Shown here: piece after piece, positions 169 to 12,220 of the stretch
How positions within the stretch are numbered: the stretch's first letter is position 1
How the letters are laid out: the number at the start of each line of letters is the position of its first letter
Assembly (NCBI GenBank): GCA_963771275.1
Contig: CAVYSW010000001.1
Span: 1 to 12,220 of the forward strand
From: an uncultured Gemmatimonadales bacterium
GTDB lineage: Bacteria; Gemmatimonadota; Gemmatimonadetes; Gemmatimonadales; GWC2-71-9
Reading direction: 5' to 3'
DNA length: 12,220 nt
The notes under the pieces: model-generated
Databases searched by the model: none
Told to the model about the DNA's origin: nothing
Seen by the model: only the letters and a program-made list of their open reading frames with translations
Program-made: the position numbers and the translations under genes

Positions 169-202
169 CTGTCATTCCGGCGTCATCGAGCGATCCTAGG
201 CT
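169..202 (+). promoter_or_regulatory. Activator box (CTGTCATTCCGGCGTCAT, 169-186) + 10-bp spacer + -10 hexamer TAGGCT (197-202); promoter of the two-component operon
   Basis: GTCAT direct repeat with 11-bp period. The same geometry recurs at three other gene starts. The ATG lies 7 nt after the -10. Confidence 0.8.
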
Positions 203-209
203 GGCAGCC

Positions 210-899
210 ATGCGGGTTCTGGTCGTGGAAGATGAAATCGAGATTGCGGATCTCCTGGCCCGCGCGCTGCACGACATCTCCTGGGCGTGCGACGTGGTCG
301 CGACGGGCGGCGCGGCGCTCGAGGCCGTAGCGGTCACGGAGTACGATATCGTCGTGCTCGACCTCGGTCTACCCGACATGGATGGGCTCGAGGTGTGCCA
401 CCGCTGGCGCGCGCGCGACGTCCGGACCCCGATCCTCGTGTTGACCGCGCGGAGTGGCCTTGACGATCGCGTCACAGGTCTCGACGCTGGTGCCGACGAC
501 TACCTCGCCAAACCGTTCGCCATCGAGGAGCTGCTCGCCCGCCTGCGGGCCTTGCTCCGCCGCCCGTCGTCAGCCCAGGCACCGCTCCTCCGGATCGCCG
601 ATCTGGAGCTCGACCCCGCGACCCGGTGCGTCCGGCGGGCCGGTGAACCCCTCCGCCTCACCGCCCGCGAGTACGCCCTGCTCGAGTACCTGCTCCGCAA
701 TCCCGGGCGCGTGGTGACCCGCGCACAGATCCTCGAGCACGTGTGGGACGACAACTTCGATCCCGTCGCGAACGCGGTGGATGTGCTGGTCGGGCGCGTC
801 CGACGCAGGATCGAGTCTCCGGACGGCACGCCGCTGATCCACACGATCCGCGGCGCCGGATACGTGCTGTCCGAGACCGAGCCGCCCAATGCCGTTTAG
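210..899 (+). CDS. OmpR/PhoB-family DNA-binding response regulator (CusR/CzcR-like clade)
   Basis: Receiver motifs MRVLVVEDE, VVLDLGLPDMDG (phospho-Asp), LTAR, GADDYLAKPF. Winged-helix motifs LTAREYALLEYL, VWDDNFDPVANAVDVLVGRVRRRI, IHTIRGAGY. Confidence 0.97.
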   Translation: MRVLVVEDEIEIADLLARALHDISWACDVVATGGAALEAVAVTEYDIVVLDLGLPDMDGLEVCHRWRARDVRTPILVLTARSGLDDRVTGLDAGADDYLAKPFAIEELLARLRALLRRPSSAQAPLLRIADLELDPATRCVRRAGEPLRLTAREYALLEYLLRNPGRVVTRAQILEHVWDDNFDPVANAVDVLVGRVRRRIESPDGTPLIHTIRGAGYVLSETEPPNAV

Positions 900-2253
900 T
901 CGCCTTCGGCTCCAGATCGCGCTTCGGTTCGCGGCGGCGGTGCTGATCGCCGCCGGCGTGGTGGACTTCGGCCTTTCCGCCTACTTGCGGCGCGATGCGG
1001 ATGCCCGGCTCACCCGCGACCTACAGGCAGCCGCGCGAGGGCTCCGCGACGCCGTTCTGCGGGAGGCCCAGGAGACCGGCATTACGCAGGCCCAGGCGGT
1101 GCACGACGCCCTGGAGGAATGGCCGGCGGGCCCGACGGCATTCGCGGTGTTCGGCGCCGACCGCGCCCGGCTTGGTGCAGTCGGGCCCGGGGAGCCGCAG
1201 CGTCTGCTGCGTCTGCCGGTAGCGCCAACGCCGGGCACGGTGCGGACCTATCCGTTGGACGACGAAGGCGACCTGCGCACGGTGGTGGACGGCGACACCG
1301 TCCCACCCCGTCTCTGGATCATCGCCGCCCGTTCGACCGCCGAGCTGCGGGAGCATGAGGAGCTGCTGACCGGCTGGCTCCTGCTCAGCGTACCCGGCGT
1401 CGCGCTGTTCTCGCTCCTCTCGGGGTACTGGCTTGCGCGGCGCGCCTTGCAGCCCCTGCGTGACACGGCCGATGCCATTGAACGGATCGCGCCCGACGAC
1501 CTCCACCGTCGCCTTCCGGTGCGGACCCCGCCTGACGAGATCGACCGCCTCGCCGACCGGTTCAACGGCCTGCTGGAGCGCCTGGCGCAGGCACGGGACC
1601 GCAATCGCACGTTCTTGGCACGCGCGGCGCACCAGCTCAAAACCCCACTCACGGTCGTCCGCGGAGAGAGCACCCTCGGCCTCGAGCGCCCGCGTGACAA
1701 CGATACGTACCGCGCCGTCCTCGAGCGCATCCGGCGCGCGGCGGACCAGATGACGCACCGCGTGGACGACCTGTTTCTCCTGGCTCAGGCCGAGGCCGGC
1801 GATCAGCCGCCCATGCAAGATGCGGTCGAGCTCGACGGCCTCGCCCTCGAGTGCGCGGACCTCATGCGTGGCCGAGCGCAGCGGGCTGGCCGCTCCTTGG
1901 AGCTGGACCGGGTTGAAGCGGCGCTGGCTCGTGGCAACGAGCCCCTGCTCCGCGAGGCCGTGCTGGAGCTGATCGAGAACGCGGTGAGGTACGGTGGCCC
2001 GGAGCGCCCCATCCGCGTGTCGGCATACTGCGAGCACGACCGGGCGCACCTGGCCGTGTTGAGCGCGGGTGGGCCCATTCCCGAAAGCATCATGGGGCCG
2101 CCCGCCCGGCAGGAGGAGGGATCTGGTCTGGGGCTCTCCATTGTCGCATGGATCGCGCGCGTGCACGGGGGGAAGCTGGCCTACCGCCATGCCGACGAGA
2201 CCAACACCCTGCAACTGGTCTGGCCCGTGCCAGGCCCAGCGAGCAGCGGGTAG
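889..2253 (+). CDS. Membrane sensor histidine kinase (2 TM, periplasmic domain, HAMP, HisKA, HATPase_c)
   Basis: Two hydrophobic segments, HAMP (LQPLRDTADAIERI...DEIDRLADRFNGLLERL), H-box AAHQLKTPL, N-box ELIENAVRYG, G2 GSGLGLSIV. Overlaps the regulator by 11 bp. Confidence 0.95.
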   Translation: MPFSRLRLQIALRFAAAVLIAAGVVDFGLSAYLRRDADARLTRDLQAAARGLRDAVLREAQETGITQAQAVHDALEEWPAGPTAFAVFGADRARLGAVGPGEPQRLLRLPVAPTPGTVRTYPLDDEGDLRTVVDGDTVPPRLWIIAARSTAELREHEELLTGWLLLSVPGVALFSLLSGYWLARRALQPLRDTADAIERIAPDDLHRRLPVRTPPDEIDRLADRFNGLLERLAQARDRNRTFLARAAHQLKTPLTVVRGESTLGLERPRDNDTYRAVLERIRRAADQMTHRVDDLFLLAQAEAGDQPPMQDAVELDGLALECADLMRGRAQRAGRSLELDRVEAALARGNEPLLREAVLELIENAVRYGGPERPIRVSAYCEHDRAHLAVLSAGGPIPESIMGPPARQEEGSGLGLSIVAWIARVHGGKLAYRHADETNTLQLVWPVPGPASSG

Positions 2254-2283
2254 GACCCCCAGGGTTCATCCCCCGAGGGGGTC
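2254..2283. terminator. Possible hairpin between convergent genes
   Basis: GACCCCC (2254-2260) is complementary to GGGGGTC (2277-2283) in the 44-bp gap between two stop codons. No U-tract on either strand. Confidence 0.3.
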
Positions 2284-2297
2284 TCACCACCGTCAAC

Positions 2298-2897
2298 TCA
2301 GCGTCCCGTCTCCTGCTTCACGGGGCTCACAGCACCCGTCATGGCATTGATCGTGACGTGCCAGACCCCTGGACGGCCGGGAACGGTGAGCGAGAAGGAG
2401 TAGGTCAGCGTCCCACTCTCTTCCTCCAGCTCCGCCTTGGTGATCGTGCCGTTGGGGACGGCCGCGCGCGCCAGGGTTCTCGCGCTGTCCCCGGAGATCT
2501 TGGCCCGTGCCGCGAGACCCGGATGCTCCTCCACGATCTGCACGGCTCCAGCAGCTCCCGACTCCTCGGCGTTCTCGCGTTCGACGGGCGCGACCTGGCC
2601 CGTGACCGCGTCCACGTTCACCTCGAAGATGCCCGGCTGCCCGGGCACGCGGAGATCGAACGAATAGATGAGCTTACCGTTCTCTTCTTCGATCTCGGCC
2701 GCCGAAATCCGCCCCTTCGGCACCGCCTTCCGCGCTAGCACGATCGCGCTGTCGCCCGCCACCTTGGCGCGGGCCATCAGCCCCGGCGTTTCCTCTTTGA
2801 TCGTGACGCGGGTGCCCTGCTGCTGGGCCCAGGCGGTGGCCGGCGCACCTCCCACCACCACTGCCGCGGTGACGACCATCAGCTTCATAGCCCTCAT
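2298..2897 (-). CDS. Secreted protein with two tandem PepSY-like domains
   Basis: Signal peptide ending AWA|QQQ, upstream GGAGGA. Two repeats with the PepSY pattern (A..LARxAVP.G.I..AELEEE.G.L.YSF.L......V.(V/I)(D/N)A.TG.V). Confidence 0.88.
   Translation of the reverse strand: MRAMKLMVVTAAVVVGGAPATAWAQQQGTRVTIKEETPGLMARAKVAGDSAIVLARKAVPKGRISAAEIEEENGKLIYSFDLRVPGQPGIFEVNVDAVTGQVAPVERENAEESGAAGAVQIVEEHPGLAARAKISGDSARTLARAAVPNGTITKAELEEESGTLTYSFSLTVPGRPGVWHVTINAMTGAVSPVKQETGR
2310..2807 (-). repeat. Intragenic tandem duplication: aa 31-108 (nt 2807-2574) and aa 119-196 (nt 2543-2310)
   Basis: Ungapped manual alignment gives 47/78 identical residues. Confidence 0.9.
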
Positions 2898-2940
2898 TGC
2901 TCCTCCGTGGGTGGAAGCCCGGTCCGGTCCCCATCCACCA

Positions 2941-2974
2941 AGGCTACCGCCGGCACATGACAGACTCCTGACAG
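2941..2974 (-). promoter_or_regulatory. Activator box (CTGTCAGGAGTCTGTCAT, 2974-2957) + 10-bp spacer + -10 TAGCCT (2946-2941); promoter of the PepSY gene
   Basis: Perfect CTGTCA direct repeat at 11-bp period in a 100-bp intergenic gap, same geometry as the other three. Confidence 0.82.
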
Positions 2975-2997
2975 TGGCGCGGTGAGAAACGCCGACA

Positions 2998-3936
2998 TCA
3001 CTTCGGGAACGAGAGCATCATGCCAATCTGGGGTGCCCAGTCGGTGGCCTTGGACGAGATCCCGACCGCGTTGTCGAGCTTGAAGAAGAGGAAGTCCGCA
3101 ATGCGCCAGTGCGTGCCGAGGACGAGGTCCCACTCGTCCGGCGCGCCGGTTTCACCGCCCTCAACTCCGAAATACACGCGCCAGGAGGGTGACAACCGCT
3201 TGAGGTATTCGAGGGAACTCTCCCCGAGATCGAGATGCTTGTTGTCATGATTGTACTCTACGGTGGTGCGAAACGTCATCGTGCCCCAGGAAAACCCCCT
3301 CACGATGCCGATGCCGGGCTTGAAGTCCCACTCTGAAGCGCCGATCAGCACTTTCGTCTTCTGCGACGGAGGCGTCACCTCCAGGAACCCGAAGAGGCCG
3401 GGGCGATGGTCACCCTCCCGCATCACATGCATGCGAAGCTGTCCCTCGATGTCTCCCAGCCCCGATTCCTCGATTCTCGCCGGCATGGCGGACGGGTCGC
3501 TGGGCGACCTCTCGAGTGTAGCGCGCACGAAGCCTGCCTCGAACTCGAGCGCGAGCCAGTCGGTCAGGCCGTAGGCGACGAAGATCAGAGCCTCGGAGCT
3601 CCGGTACTTCCCGCGGAAATCCTGATCCAGTCCGAAGCCCAGCGCGGCCGGCTGGTACTCACGGTTGTTATCGAGGGAGTACGCGAAGAACGGGTGGACC
3701 ACCAGCTGGCCTCGGCCGATGTAGGTCCCGAACAGCGAGGCTGGGACGCCGGCGCCTCGGTCCGTCAGATACCTCGGCAGGGCACCGTCCTGGCCCGCGA
3801 CCGTGCCGGGCAGACCGGCCACCCCCGCGACGACGACGAACGCCCCAAGCGTGCGCCGACTCATGTGTGTGACCTGAAGCGGACGTCGCGATTCGCGGGG
3901 GTTTCGCAAGGCGCGGAAGGCCCGTAGTATGGTCAT
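2998..3936 (-). CDS. Putative outer-membrane beta-barrel, COG4313 / Phenol_MetA_deg-like 'transporter'
   Basis: Signal-like hydrophobic segment, AYGLTDWLALE and SGLGDI motifs, alternating amphipathic strands, C-terminal GMMLSF. GAGGTG precedes ATG 3936; an alternative ATG at 3864 sits nearer the signal peptide. Confidence 0.7.
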   Translation of the reverse strand: MTILRAFRALRNPRESRRPLQVTHMSRRTLGAFVVVAGVAGLPGTVAGQDGALPRYLTDRGAGVPASLFGTYIGRGQLVVHPFFAYSLDNNREYQPAALGFGLDQDFRGKYRSSEALIFVAYGLTDWLALEFEAGFVRATLERSPSDPSAMPARIEESGLGDIEGQLRMHVMREGDHRPGLFGFLEVTPPSQKTKVLIGASEWDFKPGIGIVRGFSWGTMTFRTTVEYNHDNKHLDLGESSLEYLKRLSPSWRVYFGVEGGETGAPDEWDLVLGTHWRIADFLFFKLDNAVGISSKATDWAPQIGMMLSFPK

Positions 3937-3984
3937 CTGTCACCTCGTCGTGAGTCGGCCATCCCGTGGCCGGCCGGCTGTGCC

Positions 3985-4018
3985 AAGCTATCCCGCCCAC
4001 GTGACAAGCCGGTGACGG
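3985..4018 (-). promoter_or_regulatory. Activator box (CCGTCACCGGCTTGTCAC, 4018-4001) + 10-bp spacer + -10 TAGCTT (3990-3985); promoter of the beta-barrel gene
   Basis: GTCAC direct repeat at 11-bp period with the same spacing to a TAnnnT hexamer. Confidence 0.78.
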
Positions 4019-4021
4019 ACG

Positions 4022-4055
4022 CTGTCACCCGGATGTCATGCACGCCGGCTATGAT
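4022..4055 (+). promoter_or_regulatory. Activator box (CTGTCACCCGGATGTCAT, 4022-4039) + 10-bp spacer + -10 TATGAT (4050-4055); promoter of the rightward run
   Basis: TGTCA direct repeat at 11-bp period and a -10 with 5/6 match to TATAAT. Confidence 0.83.
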
Positions 4056-4103: not shown

Positions 4104-4580
4104 TTGAAGCTACTCGCGATCACCGCCATCCTGTCCGTGGCGGGCCCCACCGGCTGGGCTGGCTTGCCGTCAACCCCCGCGCAGGATCCCCCGACCTACG
4201 CGCAGCAGCTCGTCAATCAGATGGTCGCCGCTCACGCGGAGCTGGCGGCAATGGAGCTGGCGCTCCAGTTGACAGAGGGCTGCAAGACCGTCGCCGCAAC
4301 CGCTGCGGAGGACATCGGCGAGAAATGCGACGACGACGAGCTGGGGCCCATCCGCACCGGCGAGCCCGACGTGGAAGAGCCGACCAAGGACGACCCCGTG
4401 TACGACATCACGCAGGCGCTCCACGACAGCGCTGGGAACCTCATCGGGGCGGTGGGCATGGACCTGAAGCCCGCGCCCGGGAAGGACCGGGCGGCGATGG
4501 TGGCCCAGGCTCGAGCGATTCTGCATGAGCTCGAAGCGCGGATCCCCTCGAAGCAGAAGCTCCTGGAGCCGGCGTCGTAG
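4104..4580 (+). CDS. Secreted acidic protein, probable stand-alone Cache/PDC (periplasmic PAS-like) domain
   Basis: GGAGG at 4094-4098 before a TTG start, signal peptide. YDITQALHDSAGNLIGAVGMDL resembles the terminal beta-hairpin of Cache/PDC domains. The CDS is well supported; the fold call is by eye. Confidence 0.65.
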   Translation: MKLLAITAILSVAGPTGWAGLPSTPAQDPPTYAQQLVNQMVAAHAELAAMELALQLTEGCKTVAATAAEDIGEKCDDDELGPIRTGEPDVEEPTKDDPVYDITQALHDSAGNLIGAVGMDLKPAPGKDRAAMVAQARAILHELEARIPSKQKLLEPAS

Positions 4581-4693
4581 CCGCGGCATCTTGTGGGCGG
4601 CGGGGGTGGCATAGGGCTCGCGTGGTCGCCTTCCCCGTGACCGCAGCGTAGAATACGGCCGACCCCTCATCCGGCGGCGCCGGAGCCCACGTC

Positions 4694-5971
4694 ATGATGC
4701 TCGCGCTCCTTCTCATCGCTCGCGGACTGCTGCCGCAAGGTCCGCAGGACTCGCTCACCCTCGACGCCGCGCTCGCCCTGGCGCGGGCGCACCGCGGACA
4801 GGTGGCCATCGCGGCCGCCGTGGTCGCCGCCGCCCGCGCCGAGCGGCGGGTGCTCCTCTCCCTCCCCAACCCCACGGTCTCATACTCCTACACGGGCGAC
4901 CCGCCGCGCCAGCACGCCACCGTCGACCAGCCGCTGGACTGGCTGCTGCGCCGCGGCAGTGAGGCCGTCGCGGGACGCGCTGGCATCGGCGTGGCGCTGG
5001 CCGATTCCACCCGTCTCTTGGCGGACGTCGCCCGCGAGGCGCGGAGCGCGTTCTACACGGCGCTCGGCGCCACGCGTCGACTCGCGCTCGCCGAGGATGA
5101 GGCCGCCCTCGCCGACTCGCTCGCGGCCATCGCCGCGCGGCGCCGGGCAGCGGGCGAGATCCCCGAGCTGGAACAGGCCCAGGCCGCGCTCGAAGCCGCC
5201 CGGGCGCGGCAACTCGTCTCCGCCAGCCGCGAGGACCATGCGCTGGCGGCCGCCGAGCTGGGCCGGGCGCTGGGCGTGCCGCGCGAGTCGCTGCCCGCGC
5301 CGGCCGGCGCGCTCGATCGGGAGCTTTCGGCAGTAGCGCCGGCCATGCCTCCGGCGGAGGAGCTCCCCATGGTCGTGGCCGCGCGCGCCGACTCCACCAT
5401 GGCGCGCGCGGTGTATCACGCCGCACAGTGGAGCCGGGTTCCGTTCCCGTCCGTGCAGGCCGGTGTCGAATGGAACGACCCCACCAACCCGACGGCCGGC
5501 TCCACCGTGCTGCTGGGCCTCTCCCTGCCGCTCCCGCTGTGGCAGAGCGGCGGCGCATTCACCGCCGCCGCGCGGGCCCGCGCCGACCAGGCGGCGGCCC
5601 AGCTCCGCGAGGTGCGGGCCGATGCCGCGCGGCTCCTCGCACAGGCGGCCACGCGCGTGCGGGAGACGGCGCGACGCGCCCTCGTGGCGCGCGATTCCAT
5701 TCTCCCGCTCGCCACGCGGCAGCGGGAGCTCGCGCTCGTCGCGTACACGGCCGGCGAGACCGGGATCGTGCCCGTGCTCGACGCGCTCCGGGCGGAGCGC
5801 GAGGTGGTGCGCGATCTCGTGAACGACCTCGTGGCCTACCAGGTGGCGCGGGCGGACTGGCTGGGACTGATCGGCACGACGAATGAGGTCCGGACTCTCA
5901 GGCTACGGCAACGTGGAGCCGAACGATGGATAGACGGCGGGCAGTGGCGAGCCTCGTTGCCGCCGCGGTGA
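4694..5971 (+). CDS. TolC/OEP-family outer membrane efflux protein
   Basis: Signal peptide then SLTLDAALALA. Two OEP repeats (RRRAAGEIPELE / AYTAGETGIVPVLDA), GLSLPLPLW strand. Directly upstream of MFP and RND genes. Confidence 0.92.
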   Translation: MMLALLLIARGLLPQGPQDSLTLDAALALARAHRGQVAIAAAVVAAARAERRVLLSLPNPTVSYSYTGDPPRQHATVDQPLDWLLRRGSEAVAGRAGIGVALADSTRLLADVAREARSAFYTALGATRRLALAEDEAALADSLAAIAARRRAAGEIPELEQAQAALEAARARQLVSASREDHALAAAELGRALGVPRESLPAPAGALDRELSAVAPAMPPAEELPMVVAARADSTMARAVYHAAQWSRVPFPSVQAGVEWNDPTNPTAGSTVLLGLSLPLPLWQSGGAFTAAARARADQAAAQLREVRADAARLLAQAATRVRETARRALVARDSILPLATRQRELALVAYTAGETGIVPVLDALRAEREVVRDLVNDLVAYQVARADWLGLIGTTNEVRTLRLRQRGAERWIDGGQWRASLPPR

Positions 5972-6993
5972 TCGTGGCGGCGCTCATCGCCCTCAGGCTG
6001 AAGGGCTCCGGAGCTGGAGACGAGGCGGTCGTCACGGACGTCGCCGTGCACGTCGGCACCGTGCAGCGGGCCACCCTGCATCGCTACGTCACCGCCTACG
6101 GTTACGTCGAGCCGGAGCCGGCCGGAGGCGGGCGCGCGCCGGGCGGCGCGCTGCTCTCCCCCATCGTCGGCGGCGTGCTGGCCGAGATCGACTGCGTGGA
6201 GGGGCAACGGGTGACGGCGGGGAGCGTGCTGTTCCGGCTCGACAGCCGGATGGCAGAGGTCGCGGTGGACAAAGCCCGGCAGCAGGTCGACTTCGCCGAG
6301 CGGGCCTTCAAGCGCCAGCAGGAATTGCTTCCCTCCAACGGGACGTCACAGCGCGCCTACCAGGAGGCGGAGCAGCAGCTCGACGCGGCGCGGAGCGATC
6401 TCTCGGCCGCGGAGACCGGGCTGGCGTATCTCCGGATCACCGCGCCGCTCAGCGGCACGGTGGTTCGGCTGAGCGCCACGGTCGGCCAATTCGTCGACGC
6501 CAACACCGTGCTGGCCGAGGTGGTGAACCTCGATCGTCTGGTCGTCACCGCCAACGTGCCGGCCCGCGAGGCCGCCGGGCTCGCGCCCGGGCTGCCGGTG
6601 TTCCTCGGCGCGGACAGCACGGCGCCGCGCGGCACTCTGCGGATCGTCGGCAAGGACATCGACCCCCGCACCGGGACGTACCGGGTCCAGGCCTCGGTGC
6701 CGGCGGGCTCCGCGTTCACCCCCGGCCAGTTCACCGACATCCGGATCGTGGCCGAGGAGCGGCCCAACGTGCTGGTCGTCCCCGAGGTGAGCCTGGTGAC
6801 GCGGGCCGGCGAGGGCAGCTGGATCATGGTCGTGGAGGGCGACAGCGCGGTGCGCCGGCCCGTCACCGTGGGAATCCGGGACGGGGGCCTCGTCGAGGTC
6901 GCGGGAGCCGGTCTGGGCGACGGTATCACGATCGTCACCGACGACGCCTACAGCCTCCCCGAGGTGACCAAGATCCGGATCGTGGGGCGCTGA
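5926..6993 (+). CDS. RND efflux periplasmic adaptor (membrane fusion protein)
   Basis: N-terminal anchor, lipoyl halves (GVLAEIDCVEGQRVTAGSVLFRLD; ITAPLSGTV), IDPRTGTYRV, FTPGQF. GGAG at 5915-5918. Confidence 0.95.
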   Translation: MDRRRAVASLVAAAVIVAALIALRLKGSGAGDEAVVTDVAVHVGTVQRATLHRYVTAYGYVEPEPAGGGRAPGGALLSPIVGGVLAEIDCVEGQRVTAGSVLFRLDSRMAEVAVDKARQQVDFAERAFKRQQELLPSNGTSQRAYQEAEQQLDAARSDLSAAETGLAYLRITAPLSGTVVRLSATVGQFVDANTVLAEVVNLDRLVVTANVPAREAAGLAPGLPVFLGADSTAPRGTLRIVGKDIDPRTGTYRVQASVPAGSAFTPGQFTDIRIVAEERPNVLVVPEVSLVTRAGEGSWIMVVEGDSAVRRPVTVGIRDGGLVEVAGAGLGDGITIVTDDAYSLPEVTKIRIVGR

Positions 6994-6994
6994 G

Positions 6995-9900
6995 ATGCTC
7001 GGGCGCCTCGCGACGCGGTCGTCCCTTTCGATCTTCTTCATCTCCATCGCGCTGTGCCTGGCCGGCGTCTACGCCGCGCTGACGCTCGCCTCCTCGGTCT
7101 TCCCGCAGACCGACTTTCCCAGGGTCGTAATCCTGGTGGACAACGGCGTCATGCCGGGCGACGAGATGATGGCCACGATCACGCGCCCGATCGAAGAGGC
7201 CATGCACGACATCCGCGGCGTCACCACGGTAAAGTCGGCCACGGGGCGCGGATCGGCCGAGATCAACGTGTTCTTCACGTGGAACGTGGACATGATCCAG
7301 TCCGAGCTCTACGTGCTGAGCCGCCTCGCGCAGATCCGCAGCACTTTGCCGGCCACCGCCGTGACGACGGTGTACCGGCTCACGTTCGCGGCCTTCCCCA
7401 TCCTGGGCGTGAGCCTGACGAGCGACACGCGCAGCATCACCGAGCTGTGGGAGACGGCGCGCTACAACCTCAAGCTGCGCTTTCTGAGGATCGCCGGCGT
7501 GGCGCGCGTGGACCTGGTGGGGGGCCGGGCGCCGGAGTACCACGTCGTGGTGGATCCCATCCTGCTCGGCGCGGCGGGGCTCAGCCTTCAGGACGTGATC
7601 GCCGCGCTCGAGGCCAACAACCTCGTGGCGTCGGCGGGGATGCACGAGGAGAACCACACCCTCTACCTCACGGTGGTGGACGGACGGGTGCGCTCCATCC
7701 GGGAGATCGAGGACTTCGTGGTGACCGCCGCCGACGGCCACCCGGTGCGGATCCGGGACTTCGCGACGGTGGTGCGGGGACCCGAGCCGGTGTTCAACGT
7801 GGTCACCGCGGACGGCCACGCCGCCGTGCTGCTCAACATCCGGAGCCAGCCGGACGGCAGCACGCTCCACATCGCGCGGGACCTCCGGCGACAGATCGCC
7901 GAGCTCCGCCAGGAGCTCCCGCCCGACATGAAGCTGGCGTTCTTTTACGATCAGTCCGAGATCGTGCGGGCGTCGGTGGAGAGCGTGTGGGAGGCCATCA
8001 TCTTCGGTCTGATCCTCTCCGTCGGCATCCTCTACTTCTTCCTCAAGAGCTGGGACACGACCCTGGTGGCGACCACCGTCATTCCGGTGACGGTGCTCAT
8101 CACGCTCGTGTCGATGAAGCTCACCGGCCTCACCTTCAACCTGATGACCCTGGGCGGGATCGCCGCGGCGATCGGCCTCGTGATCGACGACGCCATCGTC
8201 GTGGTCGAGGCGATTCACACGCGTCTCACCCATGGCATCGGCCGGGCCGAAGCCGTCGTGGCCGGGATCGGCGAGATCTTCCGCCCGCTCGTGGGGTCCA
8301 CGCTCACGCCGGTCGTCGTGTTCATCCCGCTCGCGTTTCTGCGCGGCATCACCGGCGTGTTCTTCCGGGCGCTCGCGCTGACGATGGTGGTGTCGCTGCT
8401 CACCTCGCTCGTGCTGGCCGTCACGCTCACCCCGTCGCTGGCCGCGCGGCTCACGCGGCGGCGGACGGGGGCCGAAGGGACGGCGCGGGCTGAGCTGGGC
8501 GGACCCCTGCTCCACCGCGTGATCGAGATCTACGAGCGCGCGGTCCGCCCCGCTCTTCGGAATCCCTGGCGTGTCATGGCCGCCTGCGCCCTCATCCCGA
8601 TCGCCGGGGTGCTGGTCTACGGCCAGCTGGACAGCGAGTTCCTCCCGCCGATGGACGAGGGCGGGTTCGTGATCGACTACTTCACGCCCCCCGGCACGAG
8701 CCTCCAGGAGACCAACCGCCAGCTGCTTCAGGCCGAGGCAATCCTCCGCACGGTGCCCGAGGTGGAGAGCTACTCGCGGCGCACGGGCGCCCGCCTCGCG
8801 CTGGCGATCGCCGAGCCCAACACCGGCGATTTCCTGGTCAAGCTCCGCACCAACCGCAGGCGCAAGACCGACGACGTCATCGGCGAGCTGCGGCAACGGT
8901 TCAACACCGAGCTCCCGGGGCTCAACTGGGAGTTCCCGGGCATTCTCGGCGACCTGATCGGCGACCTCATGTGGGCGCCCGCGCCGGTCGAGGTGAAGCT
9001 CTACTCGACCGACCAGGCGTGGCTCGAGCAGAAGGCGCCGGAAGTGGCCGCCCGGCTCGAGGCCATTCCGGGCGTGGTGGACCTGTTCAACGGGCTGGTC
9101 TACACCGGACCGACCATCAGCCTCCGCACCCGGGCGGCCGACGCGCGCCGGTTCGGCCTCACGGCGGACGACATCGCCAACGCCGCCAACAGCGCGATGC
9201 TCGGCCAGACCGCCTCCTCCGTGCTCGAAGGCGACCGGGTGGTGGACATCCGGGTGAAGGTGGACTCGGCCCGGATCCGGACCCTGTCCCAGATCCAGGA
9301 TCTTCCGATTCGCACGCCGGCCGGGACCCTGGTGAAGCTGTCACAGGTAGTAGACGTCGTGGAGGAACCGGGGCAGCTCGAGTTGCGGCGCGAGGACGCC
9401 CGTCAGGACGTTGCGGTGACGGCGCGCCTCGAGGGACGCGACCTCGGGAGCGCGATGGCCGAGATCCGCCAGGCGCTGAGCACCGACTCGTCGATCCCTC
9501 CGGGCGCCATCGAGTACGGCGGGCTCTACCAGCAGCAGCGGGAGTCGTTCCGCAACCTGGTGTTCGTGCTCCTCATGGCCGTCTCCCTCGTGTTCACCGT
9601 GCTGCTGCTCGAGTTCGGCTCGTTCAGCGAGCCCATCGCCATCGTGTTCGGCGCCCTGCTCGCCATGTTCGGCACGGTGCTCGCCCTATGGCTCACGGGG
9701 ACGTCGTTCAACGTCGTGTCGTTCCTCGGCGCGATCATCGGGGTGGGGATCACCGCCAAGAACGGGATCCTGATGCTGGACTACGTGCGGCACCTCAGGA
9801 GCGAGGGGCTCGATCTGGTGGAAGCCCTGGTCCGCTCCGGGCGGCGGCGTCTCCGCCCCGTCCTGATGACGTCGCTCGCCGCGGCGCTGGGGATGCTGCC

Positions 9901-10078
9901 CCTGGCGTACGGTCTCGGCTCGGGCGCCGACATGCTGCGGCCGCTCGCCATCGCCGTGATCGGCGCGCTGTGCATCTCGGTTCTGTTGTCGCTCGTGGCG
10001 ACTCCGACGCTCTACTTCCTCCTGATCCGCCGGAGCACCCCGCCCCGCGGAAGCAGCGAGACACCGGCAACGGCCTGA
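6995..10078 (+). CDS. RND efflux permease (AcrB/CusA/CzcA superfamily)
   Basis: 1027 aa with two large periplasmic loops. TM4 AIGLVIDDAIVVVE, TAKNGIL, RRLRPVLMT, PLAIAVIG motifs. Confidence 0.97.
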   Translation: MLGRLATRSSLSIFFISIALCLAGVYAALTLASSVFPQTDFPRVVILVDNGVMPGDEMMATITRPIEEAMHDIRGVTTVKSATGRGSAEINVFFTWNVDMIQSELYVLSRLAQIRSTLPATAVTTVYRLTFAAFPILGVSLTSDTRSITELWETARYNLKLRFLRIAGVARVDLVGGRAPEYHVVVDPILLGAAGLSLQDVIAALEANNLVASAGMHEENHTLYLTVVDGRVRSIREIEDFVVTAADGHPVRIRDFATVVRGPEPVFNVVTADGHAAVLLNIRSQPDGSTLHIARDLRRQIAELRQELPPDMKLAFFYDQSEIVRASVESVWEAIIFGLILSVGILYFFLKSWDTTLVATTVIPVTVLITLVSMKLTGLTFNLMTLGGIAAAIGLVIDDAIVVVEAIHTRLTHGIGRAEAVVAGIGEIFRPLVGSTLTPVVVFIPLAFLRGITGVFFRALALTMVVSLLTSLVLAVTLTPSLAARLTRRRTGAEGTARAELGGPLLHRVIEIYERAVRPALRNPWRVMAACALIPIAGVLVYGQLDSEFLPPMDEGGFVIDYFTPPGTSLQETNRQLLQAEAILRTVPEVESYSRRTGARLALAIAEPNTGDFLVKLRTNRRRKTDDVIGELRQRFNTELPGLNWEFPGILGDLIGDLMWAPAPVEVKLYSTDQAWLEQKAPEVAARLEAIPGVVDLFNGLVYTGPTISLRTRAADARRFGLTADDIANAANSAMLGQTASSVLEGDRVVDIRVKVDSARIRTLSQIQDLPIRTPAGTLVKLSQVVDVVEEPGQLELRREDARQDVAVTARLEGRDLGSAMAEIRQALSTDSSIPPGAIEYGGLYQQQRESFRNLVFVLLMAVSLVFTVLLLEFGSFSEPIAIVFGALLAMFGTVLALWLTGTSFNVVSFLGAIIGVGITAKNGILMLDYVRHLRSEGLDLVEALVRSGRRRLRPVLMTSLAAALGMLPLAYGLGSGADMLRPLAIAVIGALCISVLLSLVATPTLYFLLIRRSTPPRGSSETPATA

Positions 10079-10099: not shown

Positions 10100-11155
10100 A
10101 TGAGACGATACCATCGACCCCACCTGACGCTGCTGCCGGCGCTGGCACTCGCAATCGCGGTCGGCACCGTGTCCCTGGCCGCCCAAACGCCCACATACCG
10201 ATTCATCAGAGAAATCACGGTGGGCGGCGAAGGTGGCTGGGACTATCTCGCCGAGGACGCCGCCGCCCACCGGCTCTACGTCAGCCACGGCACGAAAGTC
10301 GTCGTGATCGACATGGCGCAGGGCACGGTAGTGGGGGAGATCGACAGCCTGCCGGGCGTGCACGGGTTCGCGGTGGCCCCCGAGCTGGGGCTCGGGTTCG
10401 CGAGTAACGGCCGAGAGAACACGGCGGCCTTCGTGGATCTCAAGACGCTCGCGGTCACCAGGCGGGTCGCGACGGGCGAGAACCCCGACGCCGTCCTCTA
10501 CGTCCCGGGCTTCCAGCAGGTCTACACGTTCAACGGCCGCGGCCATTCGGCCACGGTAATCGACGCCAAGACCGGCGCGGTGGTCGCCACGATCCCGCTC
10601 CCGGGCAAGCCCGAGTTCGCCGTGTTCGACCCGGCGGCCGGCCGGATCTACAACAACATCGAGGATCAGAACGAGATCGTCGCGATCGACGCCAAGACCC
10701 ACGCCGTCGTCGCCACCTGGCCGATCGCTCCTGGCGAGGAGGCGTCGGGTCTCGCAATCGACCTGGCGCACCACCGGCTGTTCGCCGTCTGCGGCAATCA
10801 GTACATGGTGATGCTGAACAGCACGACCGGCGCGGTGGTGGATACGGTGCGGATCGGGCAGGGCGCCGACGCGGCGCGGTTCGATCCGGCGACCGGCCTC
10901 GCGTTCGCCTCCAATGGCGAGGGCACGGTGACGATCGCCCATGAGGAGTCTCCCGACCACCTCGAGGTGATCCAGACCCTCACCACGGTCCGGTCGGCCC
11001 GCACCATGACGCTCGACCCCACGACCCACCGGATCTACCTCTCGGCCGCGACGTACGAGGCGCCATCGCCGGCCGACTCGGCGACTCCCCGCCAGCGCCC
11101 GCGGATGGTGCCGGGATCGTTCCGGGTGCTGGTGTACGGGATCGACGAGCGGTAG
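10100..11155 (+). CDS. Secreted YncE/YVTN-like beta-propeller protein
   Basis: GGAGGTGA RBS, signal peptide (SLA|AQ), GGEGGWDYL. Repeated blades (VIDAKTGAVVATI, AIDAKTHAVVATWPI, HRLYV/HRLFA/HRIYL). Confidence 0.88.
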   Translation: MRRYHRPHLTLLPALALAIAVGTVSLAAQTPTYRFIREITVGGEGGWDYLAEDAAAHRLYVSHGTKVVVIDMAQGTVVGEIDSLPGVHGFAVAPELGLGFASNGRENTAAFVDLKTLAVTRRVATGENPDAVLYVPGFQQVYTFNGRGHSATVIDAKTGAVVATIPLPGKPEFAVFDPAAGRIYNNIEDQNEIVAIDAKTHAVVATWPIAPGEEASGLAIDLAHHRLFAVCGNQYMVMLNSTTGAVVDTVRIGQGADAARFDPATGLAFASNGEGTVTIAHEESPDHLEVIQTLTTVRSARTMTLDPTTHRIYLSAATYEAPSPADSATPRQRPRMVPGSFRVLVYGIDER

Positions 11156-11164
11156 GCGATCGCG

Positions 11165-11923
11165 GTGAGCGAGCTCGCGCTGCACGGCTGGGCCGTCCGC
11201 GCCGAGCTCGCGCTCGCCGCCGTCACGCTGGTTGCGCTGCTGTTCGTGGCGGCGCCGTACGGCCGCTACGAGCGCCGAGGCTGGGGCCCGACGCTGCCTG
11301 CGGCGCTCGGCTGGATTCTGATGGAGCTGCCGGCGGTCGCGCTGTTCGCCGTGTTCTTCTTTACCGGCGACCACCGCTTCGAGGTGGTCCCCCTCGTGCT
11401 GCTGGGCGTGTGGCAGCTCCACTACCTGAACCGGGCGTTCGTCTTCCCGTTGCGCATGCGCGCGGGGGGACGCAGGATGCCAGTGCTCATCGCGTTCCTG
11501 GCCATCGGCTTCAACACGCTGAACGCCTACGTCAACGCCCGGTGGATCGGGCACTTGGGAACCTACCGGAGCGCGTGGCTCGCGGACCCCCGCTTCCTGC
11601 TGGGCGCCACGTTGTTCCTCGCCGGATGGCTCGGGAACCTCCATGCGGACGCCGTCCTGCGGCGCCTCCGGCGGCCCGGCGAGACCGGATACGAGATTCC
11701 ACGCGGGGGCCTCTACCGCTGGGTCTCCGCGCCAAACTACCTGTGCGAGATGCTCGAGTGGAGCGGCTGGGCGGTCGCCACCTGGTCGACGGCCGGCCTT
11801 GCCTTCGCCGTCTATACGGCGGCGAACCTCGGGCCGCGCGCCGTCAGACACCACGCCTGGTATCGGGAGCGGTTCGCCGACTATCCGGCGGAGCGCAAGG
11901 CCTTGATTCCCGGTCTACTCTGA
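11165..11923 (+). CDS. Steroid 5-alpha-reductase-like membrane enzyme (3-oxo-5-alpha-steroid 4-dehydrogenase; SRD5A/DET2 family)
   Basis: APYGRY, WILMELPA, HYLNRAFVFP, LRRLRRPGETGYEIPRGGLYRWVSAPNYLCEMLEWSGWA, HHAWYRERF.DYP..RKALIP. GTG start. Confidence 0.92.
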   Translation: MSELALHGWAVRAELALAAVTLVALLFVAAPYGRYERRGWGPTLPAALGWILMELPAVALFAVFFFTGDHRFEVVPLVLLGVWQLHYLNRAFVFPLRMRAGGRRMPVLIAFLAIGFNTLNAYVNARWIGHLGTYRSAWLADPRFLLGATLFLAGWLGNLHADAVLRRLRRPGETGYEIPRGGLYRWVSAPNYLCEMLEWSGWAVATWSTAGLAFAVYTAANLGPRAVRHHAWYRERFADYPAERKALIPGLL

Positions 11924-12220
11924 CCGAACGTACTTCGCCTTCAGCTCGTCATACACCGTCATACGGTCGGTGACGTTACCCTCCCGGTCGAACAATCCGC
12001 TCCTCCAGCCGAGGGGCTCCCAGATCGCCGTTCCCTTCCCCAGGTCGTTGGGGAGGTCGAACACGATGTCGTTGACCTCTCGCTTGACATCGGAGTATTC
12101 CACGACGTTGACCGGCTTGCGATAGCGGTCGATCAGGTCATGGAGGTTGCCGTAGAGGTCCTCGAGGGTGCCGTGCCAGCGGGGATAGTACGACAGGCCG
12201 ATGATGTCGAACTTGACGCC
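11915..12220 (-). CDS. C-terminal part of a glycoside hydrolase family 53 protein (arabinogalactan endo-1,4-beta-galactosidase-like); 5' end outside the window
   Basis: The frame is open from 12220: GVKFDIIGLSYYPRWHGTLEDLYGNLHDLIDRYRKPVNVVEYS...GTAIWEP. SYYPxWHG and KPVxVVE (nucleophile) are GH53 hallmarks. Overlaps the preceding gene's end by 9 bp. Confidence 0.85.
   Translation of the reverse strand, partial: GVKFDIIGLSYYPRWHGTLEDLYGNLHDLIDRYRKPVNVVEYSDVKREVNDIVFDLPNDLGKGTAIWEPLGWRSGLFDREGNVTDRMTVYDELKAKYVRSE

Follow-up and report, generated by a model that had tools for sequence, protein, structure and literature searches.

The question raised by this locus is which regulator reads four promoters of one architecture in a 12,220-bp stretch of DNA from an uncultured Gemmatimonadales bacterium (assembly GCA_963771275.1, contig CAVYSW010000001.1), and how that regulator is charged. 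This stretch, hereafter the window, is an entire contig. It encodes an OmpR/PhoB-family response regulator (RR), an adjoining membrane sensor, a tripartite RND exporter and other proteins, among them a secreted PepSY protein, a possible outer-membrane barrel and a PDC/GAF-like protein. Each promoter consists of an 18-bp direct repeat (the box), a 10-bp spacer and a −10 hexamer, and sequence comparison makes it very likely that all four sites are bound by the adjacent RR. One further candidate promoter has no box.

169 to 202, plus strand: box 1 (18-bp direct repeat), 10-bp spacer and −10 hexamer TAGGCT, facing the RR gene
2941 to 2974, minus strand: box 2, 10-bp spacer and −10 hexamer TAGCCT, facing the PepSY gene
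3985 to 4018, minus strand: box 3, 10-bp spacer and −10 hexamer TAGCTT, facing the barrel gene; it also fits the Pho-box matrix
4022 to 4055, plus strand: box 4, 10-bp spacer and −10 hexamer TATGAT, facing the PDC-like gene, back to back with box 3 across a 3-bp gap
4649 to 4654, plus strand: TAGAAT without a box, a possible fifth promoter upstream of the OMF gene

The coordinates and strands that a first-pass annotation of the window had given for the boxes, spacers and −10 hexamers were all verified. The four sites are intergenic and each is oriented to a gene, as that annotation had stated, the −10 hexamer ending 7 nt before the start codon of the RR gene, 43 nt before that of the PepSY gene and 48 nt before those of both the barrel gene and the PDC-like gene. 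Since the −10 of box 1 ends 7 nt before the RR ATG, the mRNA from this promoter is probably leaderless, and the RR is probably autoregulated. GTCA recurs at an 11-bp period in place of a −35 element, and by inspection of the sequence the hexamer 17 nt upstream of each −10 was unlike TTGACA. The geometry of half-sites with an 11-bp period placed 10 bp upstream of a −10, which had been likened to that of Pho boxes, was borne out.

The pattern GTCA-N7-GTCA-N11-TAnnnT occurred exactly four times when both strands of the genome (3,860,783 bp) were scanned, always within window positions 169 to 4055. The remaining 131 of 132 spacing combinations had 0 to 2 genome matches each. In first-order Markov resamples of the window (n = 1500), 1499 contained no match and one contained a single match. 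Leave-one-out matrices placed the held-out site at rank 3 to 5 genome-wide, with at most one outside site ahead. The motif and its uniqueness in this genome are thereby established. The description of the four promoters as a complete local regulon stands in that no equal-scoring intergenic site was found elsewhere in the assembly. It needs two qualifiers: the box-less TAGAAT, which was kept in a pairwise alignment with a genome of the same genus (G003, the sole relative aligned), and the extent of the sequence, the window being the whole contig and the assembly 96.7% complete.

Relatives of the locus were then compared. With the RR as bait, mostly non-orthologues of 41 to 54% identity and one close locus were obtained. 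Apart from this genome, the PDC-like protein was rare among relatives (3 of 60 and 4 of 400), and the sensor was therefore taken as bait. Among 400 genomes from the order, 53 had sensor relatives, and loci were retrieved for 40 of 55 sensor matches, eight of them later extended. At a score of at least 18, the window-trained matrix detected 45 sites in 28 of the 40 orthologous loci, against 0.28 expected. Extension added a predicted box at a distant operon start in three of the eight loci, giving 31 of 40 loci with a site, and no further box was found in the other five. Gene order was shuffled among the loci, yet the box and −10 stayed at the starts of units, that is, before the RR, PepSY or OMF gene and before the propeller or a large receptor-like gene. 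In 7 of the 40 loci the −10 ended 8 to 10 nt before the RR start. The back-to-back pair with its 3-bp gap was kept in G003, where the barrel gene is absent and the pair faces the PepSY gene directly. Conservation of the box at this locus is thus an observed feature of the lineage.

A matrix built from 35 orthologue sites, window excluded, ranked the four window sites 1 to 4 genome-wide, with ranks 5 and 6 intragenic. The scan of genome and orthologous loci proposed as a check in the first-pass annotation accordingly put the four sites on top. Four other positions considered as distal members of the regulon were rejected: C10:523981 and C6:65390 are the next-best matches and lie inside open reading frames (ORFs), and C3:1728861 and C3:983934 dropped off the orthologue-trained list. 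The site at C3:983934 (minus strand) reads TTCAC-N6-TTCAC-N10-TAGCTT, the same geometry with another half-site. It lies about 10 kb from a second paralogous regulator (C3:994516) and may be a target of it.

In a loose search made without a matrix, the direct repeat peaked only at N7 (48 against 6 to 18 at other spacings), a −10 peak appeared solely at N11 (29, with 0 to 4 elsewhere), and inverted spacings were flat. Divergent boxes are separated by anything between 3 and 73 bp, which identifies the direct repeat as the unit. The same flat inverted spacings and variable gaps led to the rejection of a fixed inner palindrome, TGAC-N7-GTCA, as the true site; TGAC occurred within 14 bp upstream of 6 of 38 sites.

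The strict pattern was also tallied in the 400 genomes, by hand and among kin that are not independent. It was found in 28 of the 53 genomes with the sensor (18 at the sensor locus) and in 71 of the 347 without it, a number that includes one genome flagged unpublished (G393). A reversed-pattern control gave 77 of 401, so that sensor-less genomes carry the pattern at the background rate. Among the matches, one class, GTCAC-N5-GGTCAC-N10-TAnnnT, recurred mostly in genomes without the local sensor (G361, G408, G510, G526, G574, G627, G635 and others) and may represent another regulator or class II sites of PhoB. At two loci (L129, L131) a short regulator fragment appeared to be joined to a His-Gln-type kinase domain in one ORF beside the box, either a natural fusion or a deletion.

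The first-pass annotation had called a direct repeat notable for a CusR-like regulator, which did not hold up. Between cusR and cusC in E. coli, the sequence TTGTCAT-N4-CTGTCAC overlaps the palindrome already published, and this cusC 18-mer is listed among PhoB sites from chromatin immunoprecipitation, with cusC positively regulated (PMC9934606). Direct repeats are described for two more OmpR-family regulators: C. glutamicum CopR binds one (PMC3140484), and AgrR requires both inverted and direct repeats (PMC7380067). A metagenome scan with the back-to-back pattern gave 58 loci, which were tallied by hand. Twenty adjoin an OmpR-type regulator, 6 adjoin pstS, 6 lie by module genes with no regulator in view, 13 belong to a low-GC repeat family and 13 are without assignment. 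Several of the OmpR-type regulators are accompanied by canonical kinases with Glu or Asp at H+1 and fall outside the local clade. Direct-repeat architecture is therefore generic to the OmpR family, and the promoters are expected OmpR biology. In the E. coli region (L151:2510-2567), GTCA, GTCA and ATCA follow one another at an 11-bp period toward cusC after the CusR palindrome, an arrangement readable as one inverted half-site plus tandem repeats. The low-GC family, rich in TGAC/GTCA, fits the pattern but lacks neighbouring bacterial module genes (L098, L100, L105, L107, L110, L113, L115, L125, L126, L132, L136, L139 and L146).

The features of the two-component pair itself are as follows.

210 to 899, plus strand: OmpR/PhoB-family RR, 229 aa (Pfam Response_reg and Trans_reg_C)
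889 to 2253, plus strand: membrane sensor, HAMP-HisKA-HATPase, with degenerate kinase motifs (profile matches and orthologue alignment)
1630 to 1644, plus strand: H box of the sensor, H248-Q249-L-K-T252, with Gln at H+1 and Thr at H+4 in 46 of 46 orthologues

The receiver residues D8, D51, T79 and K101 of the RR are intact and were conserved in 41 to 42 of 42 sequences; its closest named relative comes from a Gemmatimonadales metagenome-assembled genome (71%). The label CusR/CzcR-like was correct only as to the best profile match of the RR, TIGR01387. The score of 218.9 bits is below the family cut-off of 279.2, and the label does not extend to metal specificity. The sensor likewise scored 164 bits against TIGR01386 (cut-off 292.55), and a fold search matched it through the cytoplasmic part only. 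In its periplasmic domain the positions conserved among orthologues are E59, E77, W78, P79 and G99, with no His or Met among them.

The degenerate kinase motifs of the sensor had been overlooked in the first-pass annotation. In the 46 orthologous sensors, window included, H+1 is always Gln, the G1 Asp and the F box are always missing, and a full G2 is kept in eight, among them the window (GSGLGL). The phosphatase Thr at H+4 was present in all 46 and in all 72 His-Gln members of the 150 nearest library representatives. These 72 included 5 with DxGxG, none with an F box and 8 with GxGLGL, against 47, 33 and 55 of the 63 representatives with His-Glu or His-Asp; an H box of either kind was missing from the 15 other rows, and fragments were included among the rows. 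Two paralogous kinases in this genome are canonical, and E. coli CusS keeps the H+1 Glu, the F box and G2. In the HisKA kinase CrdS, E372Q at H+1 is reported to leave a kinase-dead, phosphatase-competent protein, and NtrB E140Q behaves as kinase-negative (PMC3510030). The natural phosphatase DrBphP is described as marked by loss of the H+1 acid and as gated by its signal (PMC8292422).

Taken together, it is reasonably probable that the locus is a class II regulon of OmpR type that controls itself and serves envelope export, with a signal-gated phosphatase as sensor and an outside phosphoryl donor. A head-to-tail dimer of phosphorylated RR would bind YYGTCAT-N4-YYGTCAY over the −35 position and would recruit sigma70 RNA polymerase as PhoB does, a step established for the family. 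Four units would thereby be activated: the leaderless operon of the RR itself and its sensor, the genes for the PepSY protein and the barrel, and the operon of PDC-like protein, OMF, MFP, RND permease and propeller. We infer activation and start sites at the four promoters. Jointly, the four units could provide a response of envelope export and binding; the signal may be a periplasmic cation or a small toxic molecule. The sensor would hold phosphorylated RR low until the periplasmic signal arrives, the phosphoryl group being supplied from elsewhere, whether by a non-cognate kinase or by acetyl phosphate. The genome does encode an acetate kinase. For the sensor alone, we lean slightly towards a protein that acts as a phosphatase only. 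More tentatively, and at somewhat less than an even chance, the sensor is kinase-dead and phosphatase-only throughout a Gemmatimonadales-wide family of OmpR-type two-component systems and the RR is charged in trans, by acetyl phosphate or by the core paralogous kinase whose regulator appears to read a related box. The export regulon would then be an AND gate, requiring both an outside phosphoryl source and a periplasmic signal to silence the phosphatase. Searches of open-access article text yielded no account of this system.

Five OmpR-family regulators are encoded in the genome, and two besides the adjacent RR have to be considered as readers of the boxes. Control by the adjacent RR, proposed in the first-pass annotation, proved the best reading, with the PhoB and core-paralogue boxes separable from the local ones and the box conserved at unit starts. 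The annotation had named PhoB as the alternative. The local boxes do share with class II Pho boxes of E. coli the direct repeat of 11-bp period, the TGTCA core and the position 10 bp upstream of a TAnnnT −10 (PMC1906773, PMC9934606), and E. coli cusC is reported to be bound and activated by PhoB through a near-identical 18-mer (PMC9934606). They differ from E. coli Pho boxes in a GC-rich spacer, in targets that are export and envelope genes and in a reader that would not be PhoB, and the lineage has its own Pho boxes of GTTAC type. The PhoB of this genome lies elsewhere (C9:387188) and forms its own clade in the tree, and the recognition helix NAVDVLVGRVR of the local RR contrasts with RTVDMHMQRLR in PhoB. 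Upstream of pstS and phoB in relatives, the repeats are mostly GTTAC-N6-GTTAC (GTTAC in 18 of 27), and xAnnnT at N10 accompanies 3 of 27 Pho boxes against 35 of 49 local boxes. Leave-one-out comparison of the two matrices assigned 47 of 49 local and 22 of 27 Pho boxes correctly, and the local box had no match in 219,754 bp of pst/phoB loci, on which grounds PhoB was rejected as the main reader. The local-minus-Pho log-odds of the window sites, in the order listed, were +14.3, +15.6, +1.5 and +11.1 bits. Three of the four thus favour the local matrix by 11 to 16 bits; the site at 4018 (+1.5) is ambiguous and the only one that could be shared with PhoB. Together with the shared geometry, the action of PhoB at cusC, the 6 of 58 metagenome loci that adjoin pstS and the GTCAC half-sites of the phoB/DUF47 box in this genome, that site speaks for the view that the four are Pho boxes by which PhoB controls or co-controls the cluster, a view we consider very improbable. 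A stronger rival, absent from the annotation, is a core paralogous OmpR regulator (C6:109546-110214) that would read the boxes mainly or also, the local pair only modulating; this too is improbable, if less so. Its kinase was present in 30 of 30 genomes tested and has canonical motifs, a GT[CT]A-N7-GT[CT]A repeat lies directly downstream of the kinase in 15 of 30, and related Pseudomonas regulators are reported to share sites (PMC11195947). Those repeats, however, have other flanks and a −10-like xAnnnT at N10 in 1 of 15, leave-one-out assignment was correct for 46 of 49 local and 13 of 15 paralogue boxes, and the local matrix gives each of the four window sites the higher score. The background frequency of the strict pattern where the local sensor is missing, given above, also argues against a core reader. 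Some points tell against the adjacent RR. The co-occurrence of motif and module is also compatible with a universal regulator, because sensor-less genomes lack most targets too. Even after extension, 9 of 40 loci had no site at a score of at least 18 (two have 16.9 to 17.9, and some end at contig edges), and of the 53 genomes with the sensor no more than 18 had the strict pattern at its locus.

The same regulon under the same local RR might also be driven by a working, perhaps slow, kinase, which would make it a fully ordinary autoregulated two-component regulon. We hold this to be unlikely, since four kinase-linked features were lost together throughout the clade while the phosphatase Thr was retained, and since the substitution seen at H+1 abolishes kinase function in CrdS and NtrB and the missing acid marks DrBphP. 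A number of observations nonetheless weigh against a sensor without kinase function. The phospho-accepting His248 and the N-box Asn are invariant (46 of 46 each), the window sensor keeps GSGLGL, and CusS also lacks the G1 Asp, so CusS tolerates a non-Asp residue there and the sensor may retain some kinase activity. A structure model predicts an intact CA fold, and the receiver of the RR is canonical. Predicted His-Gln kinases occur naturally outside the clade (three, and one other in this genome), and TctE-type kinases carry His-Gln. As to the donor, acetyl phosphate is reported not to serve P. aeruginosa CopRS (PMC7763554).

Several observations bear on these other regulators and kinases. The candidate Gemmatimonadales Pho box GTTAC-N6-GTTAC (pstS loci L225-L254, with C9:387030-387188 and C9:413850-414100 in this genome) often had a third half-site, CGTKAC, 22 bp beyond the second one, and the gap separating phoB from a DUF47-like gene holds GTCAC variants. 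The core paralogue has a conserved repeat TTGTCAT-N4-TTGTCAT at C6:108067 (minus strand; L224, relatives L292-L321), just downstream of its kinase and here preceding TonB/ExbBD-like genes; this probably marks another OmpR regulon, one of the core genome, whose box is related. The other His-Gln kinase of the genome (C10:65761-66969, minus strand) has the H box SHQLKTP, with Thr at H+4.

Among characterised systems, CusRS with cusCFBA and CzcRS/SilRS come closest by profile for both RR and sensor, and they too adjoin a tripartite RND exporter. E. coli CusRS also has a similar recognition helix, and the cusC promoter carries the same 18-bp direct repeat. In contrast to these systems, both proteins here score below the family cut-offs, the RR clade stands apart from CusR in the tree (with weak deep support), no fixed inverted repeat is present and neither His nor Met is conserved in the sensor domain. 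The RND permease is closer to NF033617 than to CusA/CzcA, and CusS, unlike the sensor here, keeps the H+1 Glu and F box. P. aeruginosa CopRS resembles the proposed mechanism as an OmpR-family pair in which the signal would shut off the sensor phosphatase and the donor is not identified (PMC7763554, PMC11195947). According to these sources, however, CopS is thought to keep its autokinase and binds copper, and its box is palindrome-like, whereas here the kinase motifs are degenerate clade-wide. DrBphP from Deinococcus shares the lack of an H+1 acid in a natural HisKA sensor that is a signal-gated phosphatase (PMC8292422); it is described as a soluble bacteriophytochrome that senses light, with His at H+1 and a single-domain regulator, and with no DNA-binding partner or comparable regulon. 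C. metallidurans AgrRS, C. glutamicum CopRS and Caulobacter UzcRS likewise belong to the OmpR family, respond to metals or the envelope and control a few periplasmic proteins and exporters each. Direct repeats are used by AgrR in part (PMC7380067) and by CopR (PMC3140484), and many members of the UzcR regulon are secreted proteins, pumps or TonB receptors (PMC8963506). Their half-sites differ from those here, AgrR is active unphosphorylated, and the passages on these three systems describe no degenerate kinase.

The remaining genes of the window are listed below.

2298 to 2897, minus strand: secreted protein with two PepSY domains (PF03413, two stretches)
2998 to 3936, minus strand: 312-aa protein, possible outer-membrane barrel, without a Pfam match; Phenol_MetA_deg among its language-model neighbours
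4104 to 4580, plus strand: secreted stand-alone PDC/GAF-like protein, 158 aa (NCBI names of homologues; structure model)
4694 to 5971, plus strand: OMF of the tripartite RND exporter (profile matches)
5926 to 6993, plus strand: MFP of the same exporter (profile matches)
6995 to 10078, plus strand: RND permease of the same exporter, below all NCBIfam cut-offs
10100 to 11155, plus strand: YncE-like beta-propeller, a recurrent module member (profile matches, orthologous loci)
11165 to 11923, plus strand: steroid 5-alpha-reductase-like membrane protein (PF02544), 9 bp after the propeller gene
11915 to 12220, minus strand: glycoside hydrolase family 53 gene, C-terminal end only, cut by the contig edge and convergent with the operon

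The permease scored 597 of 1250 against NF033617 and 508 of 701 against TIGR00914. For the 312-aa protein, Phenol_MetA_deg made up 17% of cluster members among the language-model neighbours, which is a lead only. The PDC-like protein gave a predicted model of pLDDT 91 with weak GAF/PAS-like fold matches, and the fold search indicated no ligand (TM at most 0.50). Its family has a conserved Cys pair and an acidic cluster (C75-D76-x-D78-E79, D97, D108, D120), and some homologues (P0011, P0015, P0064, P0072) are fused to PepSY. The reductase-like gene is probably a passenger, since no tblastn match to its product was seen in the orthologous loci examined. Between the convergent sensor and PepSY genes, an inverted repeat GACCCCC...GGGGGTC (2254 to 2283) may be a shared terminator. 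Lanpepsy is said to be a tandem PepSY protein that binds metals. Metal binding by the PepSY protein of the window, by analogy with lanpepsy or UipA, was unsupported, the protein being not markedly acidic (22 Asp plus Glu against 19 Lys plus Arg). UipA is described as a tandem PepSY protein that binds metal (PMC8963506).

For a phylum that has received little study, the locus provides a regulon that is clean, conserved and distinct from the lineage's own Pho boxes. It indicates that purely head-to-tail boxes can serve regulators close to the CusR group, and it suggests re-examining whether some cus/cop boxes described as palindromic are the inner halves of back-to-back direct repeats. If the sensor is truly phosphatase-only, it would represent a clade that has naturally lost kinase function, with the loss encoded in the sequence and maintained. 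It would then be a tractable case for the question left by P. aeruginosa CopRS, namely who phosphorylates the RR when the cognate sensor does not, and the four promoters would be a ready, sharply defined reporter.

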